From the UHGV virus genome UHGV-0212541: a stretch of 39,460 nucleotides of DNA; one strand, given 5' to 3'. Every line of letters starts with the position of its first letter. Position 1 is the stretch's first letter. A program made the position numbers and the translations under genes. Shown here one piece after another: positions 2,601-6,567 of this stretch. Below the pieces are notes generated by a model. That model was not told the DNA's origin, did no database searches, and worked only from the letters and a program-made list of their open reading frames with translations. The DNA is from a virus.

Positions 2601-3395
2601 GTGAGTAAACAATGTGCAAAGTGCGGAAGTAAAATTGGCTTAACTTCATATAAAATCAAAGATAAACAAATTGTTTGCGGCAATTGTATGAAAAAAGCTG
2701 GTTACGGTATGACTACTCCTTATAAAATAATAAGATCTTTGAATTTAGAAGATTTAGATAAGGATTCATCAGAAAAAAGAAAATTAAACATATCTGATTA
2801 TACTACACAAAACAATCATGATATAGGTAATGATAGAATGAGAACTACTGAAGAGATGGTAGAATTTTGTCTTAAATACGGCTACGGTAAAGGAATGACT
2901 AAAAAATGGACAACTCATCATTTTAACTTAATATCAGATCAACTTAACAGTGACGAATACGTAATCTTCTGCTTTGTAGGATTGCATAACTATATCTCGT
3001 CAACTAAACATGACAATAATTATGCCTACGCATTAACTAATAAACGTTTAATTGTAGCTCAACAAAAAATGATAGGCAATAATGTACAAAGTATTATATT
3101 AGACAATTTAAATAATATTAGTAAAAAAAGGGGAATACTGTTGGGGACATTAACTATTGATACTCTTGGTAAAGTATTGAATGTTGCAGTTGATAAAGAT
3201 ACTGTTGATAGGATAAGTGATTCTTTAAACGAAATTATTTATAATTTAAAAAGAAGAAATATTTCTGCTACAAATTCCAATACATCAACAATTTCCTCAG
3301 CTTCAGAAATAAGAAAATATAAAGAACTATTGGATGACGGAATCATTACAGAAGAAGAATTTAATAAAAAGAAACAAGAATTATTAGATTTATAA
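2601..3395 (+). CDS. zinc-ribbon / bacterial PH-like / SHOCT-domain protein, 264 aa, function unknown
   Basis: N-terminal CxxC..CxxC (CAKCGSK...VCGNC); C-terminal SHOCT-like tail (EIRKYKELLDDGIITEEEFNKKKQELLDL); GTG start with GGAGG RBS 8 nt upstream. Confidence 0.65.
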   Translation: MSKQCAKCGSKIGLTSYKIKDKQIVCGNCMKKAGYGMTTPYKIIRSLNLEDLDKDSSEKRKLNISDYTTQNNHDIGNDRMRTTEEMVEFCLKYGYGKGMTKKWTTHHFNLISDQLNSDEYVIFCFVGLHNYISSTKHDNNYAYALTNKRLIVAQQKMIGNNVQSIILDNLNNISKKRGILLGTLTIDTLGKVLNVAVDKDTVDRISDSLNEIIYNLKRRNISATNSNTSTISSASEIRKYKELLDDGIITEEEFNKKKQELLDL

Positions 3396-3479
3396 TATCT
3401 ATCAAAAAAGATGAGCATTTAATTTAGCTCATCTTTTTCTATTTACAACACAAACATTTGTTCGTATACTCTTTTTGAG

Positions 3480-3791
3480 GTGAACATTATGTTGATGGAA
3501 GGAAAAACACAATTATGGTTTAAATTTGATCCTTCGAATAGATTTGTCAAAGATTTTTATAAGGTGTGGGATTCAGAAGTTTTCTTTTTAGCAATCGAAG
3601 ATAGCTTATTAATCAATCTCTACTATTCTAATAAGAACTACTTTAAAATTCCTGCTGCGAAAACGAGAATGAAGAAGGATGTATACTTTTTGTTTGATGT
3701 GGTGACTGACGTGCCGGACGATCGAAGCGATCATCGGTGTTATGACTATATAAAGTATACTTTCGTTGATCCAGAAAGGTATAAAGATTAA
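3480..3791 (+). CDS. hypothetical protein, 103 aa
   Basis: ORF downstream of 2601-3395 on the same strand; no recognised motif; start uncertain. Confidence 0.45.
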   Translation: MNIMLMEGKTQLWFKFDPSNRFVKDFYKVWDSEVFFLAIEDSLLINLYYSNKNYFKIPAAKTRMKKDVYFLFDVVTDVPDDRSDHRCYDYIKYTFVDPERYKD

Positions 3792-3795
3792 AGTA

Positions 3796-3815
3796 GGCTA
3801 CCTAAAAAGGTAGCC
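3796..3815 (+). terminator. stem-loop (GGCTACC-taaaaa-GGTAGCC) after the 3480-3791 ORF; weak terminator, no clean U-run
   Basis: inverted repeat read directly. Confidence 0.4.
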
Positions 3816-4020
3816 CGGAACGGATTTTATCACCATACTTATGAAAGGAGATATTTTTAAGTTGGTATTAAGATTGTGTAATATGATGATATCTATATTT
3901 TATAGTATCAGTGCTATAAAATCAAAAATAAGTCACTAATTAACTACCACTCCAATTGTAAGCCTTTTTTCTCACTTTTTTTCAAAAATATGGTATGCTT
4001 TTTAATGGCTTCAAATATAA

Positions 4021-4081
4021 AAGAGTTTAAAGCGTAACACACTTATGGGGGAGTGGTTTTTGGGGAACGCTTTAAACTCTT
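4021..4081. repeat. perfect 14-bp inverted repeat (AAGAGTTTAAAGCG ... CGCTTTAAACTCTT) around a 33-nt G-rich loop; candidate sRNA or terminator hairpin
   Basis: read directly; followed by a T-rich stretch (CTTTATTATTAT). Confidence 0.6.
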
Positions 4082-4204
4082 CTTTATTATTATCTCACAA
4101 TATAACCCGAATGTCTTTCTATTTAAAAATCAAAGTAAAACTTTTCAAATATACAGAAGTATAACTATGTGAAACATCCTTTCATTAATCCATAAAAGGA
4201 TACA

Positions 4205-4229
4205 TAAAAAAGCCACTCATTTGAGTGGC
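4205..4229 (-). terminator. rho-independent terminator on the minus strand (GCCACTCA-ttt-GAGTGGC plus U-run), about 75 nt 3' of the tRNA-like segment
   Basis: 8-bp stem followed on the minus strand by TTTTTT (plus-strand AAAAAA 4206-4211). Confidence 0.7.
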
Positions 4230-4304
4230 AATGAAGAAAAGCTTTAGCTTGTATAATACTCTTCAAAAAATTCTAACACAGAACGATTCAATTGGCTACA
4301 TTAA

Positions 4305-4346
4305 TGTACCCTGTAGGACTCGAGCCTACGACCTACGCGTTACGAG
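4305..4346 (-). other. partial tRNA-like segment: anticodon loop (CU-CGU-AA), variable loop, T-arm (GTAGG-CTCGAGT-CCTAC), acceptor 3' strand (AGGGTAC) and discriminator A; 5' half absent. Candidate att core or relic
   Basis: minus-strand read CTCGTAACGCGTAGGTCGTAGGCTCGAGTCCTACAGGGTACA folds as tRNA positions 32-73 with anticodon CGU (Thr); no matching 5' acceptor strand nearby. Confidence 0.6.
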
Positions 4347-4448
4347 TTAGATTCTATAATATATTTAACGATTAAAAACGAACAAGAGTATTGTTTTTAT
4401 AAGGTTTTATCTTTTAAATGATAACTAGTGAAACTAGCTGAAATAAAA

Positions 4449-4469
4449 TTCTGCCACCTTTTCTGCCAC
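4449..4469. repeat. tandem direct repeat, 2x TTCTGCCAC (12-bp period), about 100 bp from the tRNA-like segment; possible integrase arm-type or regulator site
   Basis: read directly. Confidence 0.6.
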
Positions 4470-4686
4470 TAAAATTACCAAAAAGATTTGTTATCTAACA
4501 ATAAGACAGTTCTATCTACCAAATAAAACTATGTATGCCCCCTCAAATAAATGAGTGGGCTATTTTTTATAACGTCAAATAGAACAGATGGTCGAGGAAC
4601 GGAAAAAATAATTAAATAATTTGATTATTTTTTCAAAATGCTTTACTAAAGTCTATTTCCATTGATATACTGTAAGAGAGCAAAAT

Positions 4687-4726
4687 TTGACTTTCATTAT
4701 TTTATGAAGTACAATGTGAAAGTTTC
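4687..4726 (+). promoter_or_regulatory. sigma70-like promoter TTGACT-17-TACAAT with palindrome TGAAAgTTTCA over the predicted +1 (candidate auto-operator) for the two-gene moron
   Basis: -35 at 4687-4692, -10 at 4710-4715, palindrome 4716-4726; strong RBS AGGAGG before ATG 4761. Confidence 0.6.
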
Positions 4727-4760
4727 AAACTAAATATAGTCCATTTAGGAGGTCATAAAA

Positions 4761-4940
4761 ATGCGTCTAAATTTAGAGCAGAATCCATCCATTTTTGTTG
4801 CAAATTCTACAGAAATGAAGAGAATTACTTCAGTCGCATCAAATAAAAAGAAAACATTTCTATCAGAAAAAGATTACAATAAAAGTGTAGAATCTGCAAA
4901 AAAAGCTTTTAATAATCTAGCATTTGAATTATCACGATGA
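4761..4940 (+). CDS. 59-aa small protein, candidate antitoxin/partner of the downstream GNAT (below the 60-aa ORF-track cutoff)
   Basis: ATG 4761 with AGGAGG 8 nt upstream; stop TGA overlaps the GNAT ATG (ATGA at 4937-4940); lysine-rich; N-terminal MRLNLE weakly recalls the RHH/DUF1778 antitoxin beta-strand. Confidence 0.5.
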   Translation: MRLNLEQNPSIFVANSTEMKRITSVASNKKKTFLSEKDYNKSVESAKKAFNNLAFELSR

Positions 4941-5512
4941 CAATTAAGAGCTGTGCATACAATGCATATATAGACACACAAAAAATAAAGGGTTTTTATT
5001 GTGAAAATGAACGTATCAACAAATTTTTTCATGAAGAAGCCGAAGAATTAGAAAAATGTGGTGCTGGAAATACAATAATCTATTATGAAGATTCAACTGG
5101 TGAAATATTCGGATTTTACACCCTATCGCTTCGTCCTTTAAATATTACAGAGCTAAAAAAGTATGATAGATTTAATAAAAAATTCTTAAGTGACTTTGCT
5201 AATTCATTCGAAATAGAAGAATTCCCTGCTCTCGAAATTATGAGATTGGGAGTAAGTTATGATCATAGACTTAAACGTATAGGCGCTTCTATAATTTATG
5301 ATATTTATAAGCAAGTTATTGAATTGCAAATTTACTATAATCTGCCAATAAACGTTATCTTTATAGAAGCTTTATATGAAGTTACTGAATTTTATGAGAA
5401 ACTAGGGTTTGAGTTCATTAAATATTCTGATGAAGAACATCGTCTCGAAAAATATCCTATGTTGATCAACACAAAAAAAATAATTGACATCGTATATCCA
5501 GAATCAAAATAA
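4937..5512 (+). CDS. GNAT-family N-acetyltransferase, 191 aa (candidate GNAT-type toxin or other acyltransferase)
   Basis: motif A-like IMRLGVSYDHRLKRIGASIIYDIY and motif B-like FIEALYEVTEFYEKLGFEF; translationally coupled to the upstream 59-aa ORF. Confidence 0.75.
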   Translation: MTIKSCAYNAYIDTQKIKGFYCENERINKFFHEEAEELEKCGAGNTIIYYEDSTGEIFGFYTLSLRPLNITELKKYDRFNKKFLSDFANSFEIEEFPALEIMRLGVSYDHRLKRIGASIIYDIYKQVIELQIYYNLPINVIFIEALYEVTEFYEKLGFEFIKYSDEEHRLEKYPMLINTKKIIDIVYPESK

Positions 5513-5524
5513 TTTCTATGTAAT

Positions 5525-5549
5525 GCCCCTCAACGAGGGGCTATTTTTT
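5525..5549 (+). terminator. rho-independent terminator (GCCCCTC-aac-GAGGGGC plus TTTTTT) ending the GNAT operon; abuts the convergent lysin stop
   Basis: 8-bp GC stem with a 6-T run. Confidence 0.8.
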
Positions 5550-6567
5550 ATCGTTTCGGAATATTTAAATACCAGCGTTTATCATGAAAATCTTGTGCTC
5601 CGCCTTTAGTGTTCCCTTCTGGATCATTCGTTGCACGCATCATGACATAGACTTTCTTATTAGGGAAGTTGCGCATATTGAAAGATACATGATAACCAAC
5701 ATTTCCAGAAGTATTATAAGCTTGATTTACATCTGGTCTATAAATTCCATCAGCTCTTACTCGAGCTAATTCTTTCCCAGTATTGTAATCCATAATGAAA
5801 ATATACTCGTATTTATAGTTAGCAATGTGCCATCCAGCTACATGCAAGTTTGCGTTTTCGATTTCTCCGAACTGATCAATGTGGGCGTAATTTGTTCCAT
5901 CTGTTAGTGTAGGATTTGCAGCACCTGCTCTAGTTGGATCAATGACTGGTTTATCATCTGAAGTAGTTGGATTTTCATCGGTAAATCCATGAGCTAAATC
6001 ATATGCTAATTTTTCTTTACTTACGCCCATTTCAGAAAGATAACCGTAAGGATCTGTATGATCACCCCAAATATTTTGTGTTACCCATAAATGTGATTTG
6101 ATTCCTGGTTGGTTATAAGGAGTGTCTAATGTTAATGGAATACCATATTTCATTGCTGAATCTCTTGCCAATTCAACATATGCTTTATAGTTCTTTTCAA
6201 AAGTTGCTTTATCATGTGTGTGTTGTAACTCAATCTGCACAGGACTATTGGCATTAGCATATGAACCAGCACCATACTGTACATAACCAGGTTGTCCAAC
6301 TTGGTAAACAATTCCACCGTCTCCCACAATATAAGCAGTATAAGCACTAGTCCATGAACGTTGCATATATTGCGCTTCATTGCGTCCTGTTGCTGTTTCA
6401 TTAGCCGTTTCATGCAGTAAAATATACTGATTATTTGCTACTTGTGAGCTACCTTCATTTGCGCCCAAATTAAATTCATTGTTGATAGTATAGGCAAATC
6501 CGTTAATTGGCAATAAAAAAAGAGCCGTTAACAGGCTCATCGCAGTAATAGTAATTTTCTTTTTCAT
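5548..6567 (-). CDS. endolysin with N-terminal Sec signal peptide; N-acetylmuramoyl-L-alanine amidase-like catalytic region plus C-terminal wall-binding region
   Basis: MKKKITITAMSLLTALFLLPINGFA signal peptide; YILLHETANE...AYIVGDGG amidase_2-like segments; last gene of the lysis cassette, after the holin. Confidence 0.8.
   Translation of the reverse strand: MKKKITITAMSLLTALFLLPINGFAYTINNEFNLGANEGSSQVANNQYILLHETANETATGRNEAQYMQRSWTSAYTAYIVGDGGIVYQVGQPGYVQYGAGSYANANSPVQIELQHTHDKATFEKNYKAYVELARDSAMKYGIPLTLDTPYNQPGIKSHLWVTQNIWGDHTDPYGYLSEMGVSKEKLAYDLAHGFTDENPTTSDDKPVIDPTRAGAANPTLTDGTNYAHIDQFGEIENANLHVAGWHIANYKYEYIFIMDYNTGKELARVRADGIYRPDVNQAYNTSGNVGYHVSFNMRNFPNKKVYVMMRATNDPEGNTKGGAQDFHDKRWYLNIPKR

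Follow-up and report, generated by a model that had tools for sequence, protein, structure and literature searches.

The viral genome UHGV-0212541, a stretch of 39,460 nucleotides that we refer to as the window, carries a two-gene cassette in which a gene for a 59-residue basic protein (4761–4940, + strand) is followed by a gene for a 191-residue GNAT acetyltransferase (4937–5512, + strand), the TGA stop codon of the first overlapping the ATG of the second in the tetranucleotide ATGA. Profile searches and a structure prediction support the assignment of the enzyme as a distant member of the GNAT toxin lineage of toxin-antitoxin (TA) systems belonging to type II. We consider the chances about even that the two genes form a prophage cargo cassette of TA type, expressed from the prophage, in which the small basic protein restrains the toxin-lineage GNAT. 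More tentatively, we propose that the cassette represents a Firmicute phage branch of the tRNA-acetylating-toxin fold, in which a new family of basic partners of 50–60 residues, devoid of a DNA-binding domain, has replaced the ribbon-helix-helix (RHH)/DUF1778 antitoxin, and which serves as an immunity or addiction module or else acts on a target other than tRNA; such a module would be constitutively expressed, and the non-tRNA alternative would be suggested by the combination of an acidic enzyme with a basic partner. The original prediction for this locus was a GNAT/RHH TA pair. Its enzyme half is supported by the profile and Foldseek searches described below, whereas the partner gave no RHH or DUF1778 signal with Pfam, hhalign or hidden Markov model (HMM) searches.

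The kinship of the enzyme with the GNAT toxins is seen in sequence and in predicted structure alike. The protein is acidic (isoelectric point (pI) 5.07, net charge −8), matches Pfam only below threshold (Acetyltransf_7, E 0.003) and aligns over its full length with PHROG 1758 (‘acetyltransferase’; E 1.8e-28, residues 7–183 on profile positions 13–182 of 184). When the single sequence was searched against the PDB, the only GNAT matches were ItaT (7byy), TacT (7f36, 7ak8, 5fvj) and GmvT (9ilr), at E values of 1.4e-3 to 0.08. Of 1.84 billion representative proteins searched, 819 qualified as relatives with an E cutoff of 1e-3 and 63 with a cutoff of 1e-10, and a family profile made from 59 sequences, its closest relatives, retrieved 16 type II GNAT toxin chains (AtaT, AtaT2, GmvT, TacT1-3, KacT and ItaT) at E values from 1e-26 to 5e-21, the next GNAT being a glucosamine-phosphate N-acetyltransferase at E 1e-7. 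The AlphaFold2 (AF2) model of the enzyme is confident (pLDDT 91.5), and the top 38 matches that Foldseek found for it in the PDB are all type II GNAT toxins (TMq 0.65–0.81, with ItaT the best at 0.81); unrelated GNATs in the same search scored ~0.5, and the best of the predicted viral GNAT structures reached a TM of ~0.55. Grouping with aminoglycoside, streptothricin or Rim-type acetyltransferases, which the original prediction had named as an outcome that would speak against a toxin, was not what we found.

The catalytic tyrosine and a key glycine are kept in the enzyme. The acetyl-CoA loop (R111-L-K-R114-I-G116) and the catalytic tyrosine (Y153) lie within the two strings pointed out earlier as GNAT motifs A and B. 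Y153 is invariant in the 59 family sequences and aligns with ItaT Y150, the counterpart of the general-acid tyrosines TacT Y140, AtaT Y144 and KacT Y145; G116 is conserved in at least 90% of the family and aligns with ItaT G115; an N-terminal motif, F20-x-C22, is conserved as well. In ItaT, Y150 acts as the general acid, mutations of Y150 and G115 reduce toxicity, and G115D is inactive (PMC7367177). Positions 1 and 6 of the loop fit the consensus Q/R-x-x-G-x-G/A; position 4, to which we return below, is K, H or R in several family members.

The two genes travel together. In 12/12 loci with a GNAT of this phage type, a basic open reading frame (ORF) of 49–60 codons lies directly upstream of a GNAT gene for 176–203 residues, with the stop codon of the former falling anywhere from 14 nt inside to 8 nt before the start of the latter. 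These loci are the window itself, five metagenome contigs (L031, L004, L005, L035 and L036), the IMG/VR viral contig L024, and five named phages: Listeria phages A118 (gp26/gp27), LP-LmcIH1-9 and vB_LmoS_293, Latilactobacillus phage TMW 1.1397 P1 and Streptococcus phage Javan126. The pair thus occurs in temperate phages of four Firmicute genera (Enterococcus, Listeria, Streptococcus and Latilactobacillus) in addition to metagenome contigs, it lies 3' of the endolysin gene in the loci with enough context, and a small ORF, homologous or analogous, is kept down to 20–30% GNAT identity. When the window is compared with a homolog whose GNAT is 66% identical, the small ORF has a dN/dS of 0.09 (at dS ~1.2) and the GNAT one of 0.07. 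Because it is conserved beside the GNAT in every one of these loci and has so low a dN/dS, the small ORF is, by the pattern of its substitutions, a real gene under purifying selection, and the GNAT gene is likewise under purifying selection by its own ratio; the co-conservation and the translated appearance of the small ORF, which had been suggested as a check on the pairing, are therefore both seen. The GNAT gene lacks its own Shine-Dalgarno sequence, so that its translation is probably coupled to that of the small ORF. The arrangement as a whole fits the generic layout of type II TA modules, two small co-directional genes that overlap or nearly overlap and are co-inherited on mobile elements.

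Outside phages the distant relatives of the enzyme have a different neighbor: all seven with readable context, namely four metagenome proteins and three plasmid proteins (Citrobacter, Xenorhabdus and Gloeothece), are encoded immediately downstream of a TacA1/DUF1778 gene. A search of a plasmid collection for GNAT relatives gave no Firmicute match. A locus search with a narrower alignment returned two identical viral contigs only and no genome, and the locus search with the Latilactobacillus query returned no match.

A few observations on individual loci may be recorded here. In Streptococcus phage Javan126 (L003), the intact 178-residue GNAT ORF (2947–3483) is unannotated in GenBank, where only a 56-residue C-terminal piece of it is annotated; the 49-residue upstream ORF is annotated, and the pair sits between the lysin and the streptodornase/paratox virulence region. 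In the gut metagenome contigs L028 (2369–3780) and L029, an acidic GNAT relative of 179 residues, P0162, has no upstream small ORF and is followed instead by a 145-residue protein and a SecB-family protein (PF02556, E 2.8e-7), a layout reminiscent, by analogy, of toxin-antitoxin-chaperone systems. An apparent 70-residue ‘read-through’ version of the small ORF (protein cluster P0005, in L006–L009) turned out to be an artefact of metagenome gene callers that took TGA for Trp; the identical TGA stop codon is present in the DNA.

The small partner of the window GNAT (pI 9.9, net charge +5) has no significant match in Pfam, NCBIfam, PHROG, PADLOC or the PDB. When eight small ORFs of the family were compared with Pfam at E up to 10, neither PF08681 nor a DNA-binding family, nor indeed any family at all, was matched. 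The small proteins of the 12 pairs are nevertheless alike in character: all are basic (pI 9.5–10.2), and their N-terminal parts share hydrophobic stretches of beta-like character with D/N-x-x-K-E-F/Y after them. We consider that they are, by this shared pattern and position, a loose new family of their own, found upstream of the phage-type GNATs in all 12 loci. The AF2 monomer model of the window partner, made from a three-sequence alignment, has a pLDDT of 69.6 and shows a C-terminal helix (residues 36–58); the mean pLDDT is 78 over residues 31–40, 93 over 41–50 and 87 over 51–59, and residues 1–33 are of low confidence. By its length alone, a 59-residue protein is too short to hold an RHH domain together with a neutralizing segment of canonical size, and taken with the searches this leaves its assignment as a canonical RHH/DUF1778 antitoxin not supported. 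The idea that the small protein might be a ‘mini-TacA’, the C-terminal neutralizing half of a DUF1778 antitoxin, was also entertained; it came from a motif picked out by eye (a hydrophobic strand, S/D-x-K-E-F, then N-P) and was rejected as unproven after hhalign and segment-HMM comparisons. In the latter, an HMM of the neutralizing segment (L-s-e-x-w...N-P-P-x-P-N, from eight DUF1778 proteins) did not rank the small ORFs apart from random ORF fragments; the best of them reached an E value of 8.1.

Comparison with characterized systems helps to define what the cassette shares with them. Escherichia coli ItaT/ItaR (PDB 7BYY, PMC7367177) is the nearest, ItaT being the best match both in sequence (E 1.4e-3) and in structure (TMq 0.81): the two proteins align from the F-x-C motif near the N-terminus through to the C-terminus, with the catalytic tyrosine and the loop glycine kept, and there too a small upstream gene overlaps the enzyme gene. 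In contrast to ItaT, with which it is ~18% identical, the window GNAT is acidic, has an 11-residue insert after beta3 and carries Arg at position 4 of the acetyl-CoA loop, while its partner, unlike ItaR, is a 59-residue basic protein with no DUF1778/RHH signal; moreover, ItaT/ItaR belongs to a proteobacterial chromosome and the window to a Firmicute phage. TacAT, AtaRT, KacAT and GmvAT resemble the cassette in GNAT subfamily, in the overlapping, small-gene-first bicistron and in residence on mobile elements. Their antitoxins, of 88–99 residues, consist of an RHH domain and a C-terminal neutralizing segment (PF08681), neither of which is detectable in the window partner, and autoregulation by conditional cooperativity is therefore not expected here. 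Because the partner that defines the DUF1778-GNAT family, DUF1778 (or DUF4065), was looked for and not found, we place the window pair outside that family, though it may work like a member of it. Since C-terminal antitoxin fragments of just 36–46 residues have been crystallized bound to GNAT toxins (6gtq, 7ak9, 9ils), a short partner without an RHH domain is mechanistically plausible.

The DUF1778-linked GNATs have been termed the ‘true TA clade’, and hardly any GNAT toxins are reported from Firmicutes (Bikmetov et al., 2022; PMC9177977). The same study mentions that acetyltransferases outside this clade occur in TA-like bicistrons with divergent short upstream ORFs that lack DNA-binding domains. 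The window pair is like these loci in its shared toxin ancestry and in its divergent short 5' ORF without a detectable DNA-binding domain; they are, however, mentioned there in passing, with hosts, partners and functions unnamed, and the Firmicute temperate-phage family to which the window pair belongs (A118 gp26/gp27, PHROG 1758) is not described in that study. The member of this family in a well-known phage is Listeria phage A118 gp26/gp27 (NC_003216), a homologous pair of 58 and 199 residues with a 14-nt overlap, directly 3' of the endolysin gene, for which the depositors annotated a putative promoter and terminators; its GNAT is 25% identical to that of the window (E 2e-11). The A118 pair lies on the late-gene strand, whereas the window pair lies on the opposite one, and it adjoins, convergently, the genes for AcrIIA1, AcrIIA2 and AcrIIA3 (L001, 2790–4835), placing it in a counter-defence/cargo neighborhood in Listeria phages. 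We found no functional study in the literature of A118 gp26/gp27 or of a GNAT TA system in a Firmicute phage.

With these likenesses in mind, the following scheme may be considered for how the cassette would work. From the downstream gene would come an N-acetyltransferase that is active, depends on acetyl-CoA and shares its descent with ItaT, TacT, AtaT, KacT and GmvT, the toxins that acetylate aminoacyl-tRNA; from the upstream, coupled gene would come a 59-residue basic protein that binds this acidic enzyme and holds it in check, probably by means of an amphipathic helix at its own C-terminus. Depletion of the partner, either because a superinfecting phage shuts off transcription or because the prophage is lost, would leave the enzyme free to acetylate its target; by homology this would be the alpha-amino group of charged tRNAs, so that translation would stop, with abortive infection or prophage addiction as the consequence. 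Neutralization by binding, toxicity, the tRNA target and the biological role are parts of the scheme that we infer.

A number of our results weigh against this scheme. On the side of the partner, a profile search of the PDB with the small proteins at E up to 10 found no antitoxin chain, the hhalign score against DUF1778 (12.2) was practically that of the best shuffled-column control (12.0) with an E value of 0.07–0.1 equal to that of the controls, and the AF2 model, which is of low confidence over residues 1–33, is without the strand-helix-helix arrangement of an RHH domain. Neither protein matched a defence system in PADLOC-DB 2.0 at E up to 1. On the side of the enzyme, a neighbor-joining tree sets the phage-type GNATs apart from the seven DUF1778-linked ones, with a bootstrap of only 50/100; position 4 of the acetyl-CoA loop is R114 and not Gly; the phage-type GNATs are acidic in 11 of the 12 pairs (pI 4.6–6.0), always beside a basic partner; and of the basic ItaT residues proposed for tRNA contact, which include K46 and K47 of helix alpha1 (PMC7367177), these two align with E36 and E37 of the window GNAT. 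An acidic enzyme with a basic partner weakens a simple tRNA-binding toxin model. Finally, for acetyltransferases outside the ‘true TA clade’ the earlier survey allowed for antitoxins still to be identified or for other functions altogether (PMC9177977).

The charge argument has its limits. ItaT K39, R50 and K80 correspond to K29, K40 and K81 in the window GNAT, and R42 to H32. That an inverted charge cleanly separates the phage-type pairs from the canonical ones proved only partly true: five of the seven DUF1778-linked relatives are basic (pI 8.4–9.8), but the other two are mildly acidic, and because of these two the charge is not decisive. The differences in charge and loop leave room for a non-tRNA substrate without deciding the matter.

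The enzyme may instead be a non-toxic acetyltransferase that has kept the toxin fold and changed its substrate, the pair being lysogenic-conversion or counter-defence cargo and no TA system. We regard this as the foremost alternative, possible if on the unlikely side. Basic proteins of the host or the phage, defence proteins and small molecules would then all be candidate substrates, with the small protein as a specificity or regulatory subunit or as the substrate itself. The acidity of the enzyme beside an invariably basic partner, the loss of two alpha1 basic residues proposed for tRNA binding (PMC7367177), the atypical acetyl-CoA loop, and the position of the A118 pair next to the AcrIIA1-3 anti-CRISPR genes would all accord with it, as would the same possibility having been raised for GNATs outside the DUF1778 clade (PMC9177977). 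What holds us back is that all close relatives of known function, in sequence and in structure, are aminoacyl-tRNA-acetylating toxins, that the tight, coupled two-gene layout is typical of TA modules, that basic residues near the substrate groove are kept or added (K29, K40, K81 and the K/R-containing 11-residue insert), and that mild acidity also occurs in two of the seven DUF1778-linked GNATs. A GNAT with a counter-defence function does exist in AcrVA5, which inactivates Cas12a by acetylation.

It is also conceivable, and to our mind quite improbable, that the roles are reversed, with the small basic protein as the toxin and the GNAT as the antitoxin, acting by binding or by lysine acetylation. 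A precedent is E. coli yjhX-yjhQ (TopAI), where the GNAT gene lies downstream and its product counteracts a small toxin encoded upstream, and the order of the genes here, the complementary charges of the products and the conserved catalytic residues, which imply that enzyme activity matters, would fit such a relationship. The eight small ORFs, however, matched no Pfam family at E up to 10 and thus no YjhX-type toxin family, the nearest GNAT relatives are toxins and not antitoxins, and in type II systems the upstream, coupled gene usually encodes the antitoxin. The last alternative, a solitary GNAT preceded by a chance frame or mere leader, would be compatible with an ORF that is short, belongs to no database family and has a low-confidence structure, but it is effectively refuted by the dN/dS of 0.09 at dS ~1.2, the strong ribosome-binding site at correct spacing and the homologous or analogous ORF in all 12 loci, including those with just 20–30% GNAT identity.

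GNAT toxins have been well studied in Proteobacteria, where they are linked to persistence and plasmid stability. The loci described here indicate that temperate phages of Firmicutes, among them Listeria A118, streptococcal Javan phages, Latilactobacillus TMW 1.1397 P1 and other Enterococcus prophage contigs, repeatedly carry a sister lineage of the toxin enzyme as cargo, and that in these phages it is always accompanied by a previously undescribed small basic partner, which gives a concrete home to the remark in PMC9177977 on TA-like loci outside the clade. If the cassette does work as a TA or abortive-infection system, its partner would add a new class of antitoxin, and hosts of clinical relevance would have a phage-borne system that arrests translation. 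If it is non-toxic, an acetylation task of another kind would have been given to a toxin fold, in a locus where Listeria phages also keep anti-CRISPRs. Should the pair be either an immunity or addiction module or an acetylation system with a new, non-tRNA target, the reported near-absence of GNAT toxins in Firmicutes would be filled and a new class of antitoxin or partner added.

Turning to the signals around the two genes, those claimed in the original prediction (promoter-like site, AGGAGG, the ATGA-overlapping ORFs of 59 and 191 residues, and terminator) are all present where it placed them. A sigma-70-type promoter-like site on the + strand (4687–4715) consists of TTGACT (4687–4692) and TACAAT (4710–4715) separated by 17 nt, with 10/12 matches to the consensus, and the end of its −10 hexamer is 45 nt from the ATG of the small ORF. 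The match by itself is unremarkable, as 21 promoter-like sites were counted against 15.8 expected in the 3-kb region. The site is unchanged in close relatives, and a similar motif lies 31–56 nt upstream of the small ORF in eight of the nine related loci with enough sequence. The ribosome-binding site AGGAGG (4747–4752, + strand) precedes the ATG at 4761 by 8 nt and is also found 5' of the small ORFs in homologous loci. At the other end, an intrinsic terminator on the + strand (5525–5551) with a 7-bp stem, six of its pairs G-C, a 3-nt loop (stem 5525–5541) and a T-run stands between the GNAT stop codon and the convergent lysin stop codon; terminators of this class are enriched in the 3-kb region (5 seen vs 1.4 expected), and 7/11 related loci have a hairpin and T-run behind the GNAT gene. 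With its own promoter-like site and terminator, and with both recurring in related loci, the cassette is by these predicted signals a self-contained unit, in line with the separate transcription unit originally proposed.

Upstream of the promoter-like site, the left edge of the cassette (4530–4570, + strand) includes a terminator-like hairpin (~4537–4560, one mismatch) with a T-run, which was read from the sequence and not flagged by the terminator scan, and which would presumably insulate the cassette from upstream transcription. An AT-rich inverted repeat at 4602–4634, with 16-nt arms that are 94% complementary and a 1-nt spacer, lies inside the cassette ~55–85 nt upstream of the −35 hexamer and could be a binding site for a regulator. 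The 11-bp palindrome TGAAAGTTTCA (4717–4727) after the −10 hexamer, on the other hand, had been taken for an autoregulatory operator, and this idea did not survive: palindromes of the kind occur at chance level (1 seen vs 0.30 expected, with at least one in 26 of 100 shuffles), and no comparable repeat is conserved in the related loci. Given a partner without a DUF1778 or RHH signal, autoregulation through an antitoxin DNA-binding domain is in any case not expected.

The window is a complete-looking temperate siphophage genome of ~39.5 kb, opened at the repressor gene. By ORF and domain reading, the + strand begins with the repressor (1–348), ImmA (349–771) and the integrase (1145–2296); from 5548 onward the lysis, structural and early genes occupy the − strand, the first of them being an Amidase_2 lysin (5548–6567, by domain match) that is convergent with the GNAT pair. 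The nearest records are Enterococcus phages, of which vB_ElaS_B1578 is 94% identical across the integrase-to-lysin region. On the − strand at 4288–4345 lies a tRNA-Met gene fragment that comprises the 3' portion from the T-arm to the acceptor end (~4305–4333) and ~17 nt of downstream identity. It has one mismatch to the full tRNA annotated in vB_ElaS_B1578, and a complete tRNA was not detected in the window by ARAGORN. This fragment is probably the attP/att core, in which case the GNAT cassette would come to lie at the very end of the integrated prophage.

The cassette thus sits between the att-like tRNA fragment and the lysin gene, and the suggestion that this is an accessory hot spot agrees with what occupies the slot elsewhere. 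In the sister phage vB_ElaS_B1578 (L038, 4708–6413) it is filled by three unrelated genes, for 260, 145 and 169 residues, the second of them annotated as a ‘SecB-like chaperone’; because this cargo is unrelated, the lysin-to-att slot is a point of cargo exchange. We had considered whether the vB_ElaS_B1578 genes might be a related GNAT module, an idea rejected for want of any Pfam match or similarity to the GNAT family. Conversely, two independent contexts (L006 and L011) have in common with the window only 4530–5617 and onward, with a shared left edge at 4530. By these comparisons, the cassette is mobile with respect to the DNA around it.

Between the integrase gene and the att-like site, the + strand encodes two more cargo proteins, a 264-residue protein with DUF4428 zinc-ribbon, bacterial PH (bPH) and SHOCT domains (2601–3395, PHROG 888) and a 103-residue DUF5960 protein (3480–3791, PHROG 16386); neither has a PADLOC match. 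The non-coding stretch between the DUF5960 gene and the tRNA fragment contains a long, hairpin-forming inverted repeat (4010–4092). Rfam gave for it only a weak match to a miRNA family, at 26 bits where the gathering score is 95, which says nothing about its identity. The Rfam scan of 3700–5700 gave no credible RNA family and hence no evidence for an RNA antitoxin.

We note lastly that three database records, PQ554527.1, OR846730.1 and OR848098.1, are 92–96% identical to the window phage over several kb. They are labelled ‘Acinetobacter phage D2SVT’ and ‘Listeria phage LM 4-11-1 / 4-14-1’, the D2SVT record spanning the integrase-to-lysin region, and from this identity their host labels look doubtful, perhaps through contamination or mis-assignment.

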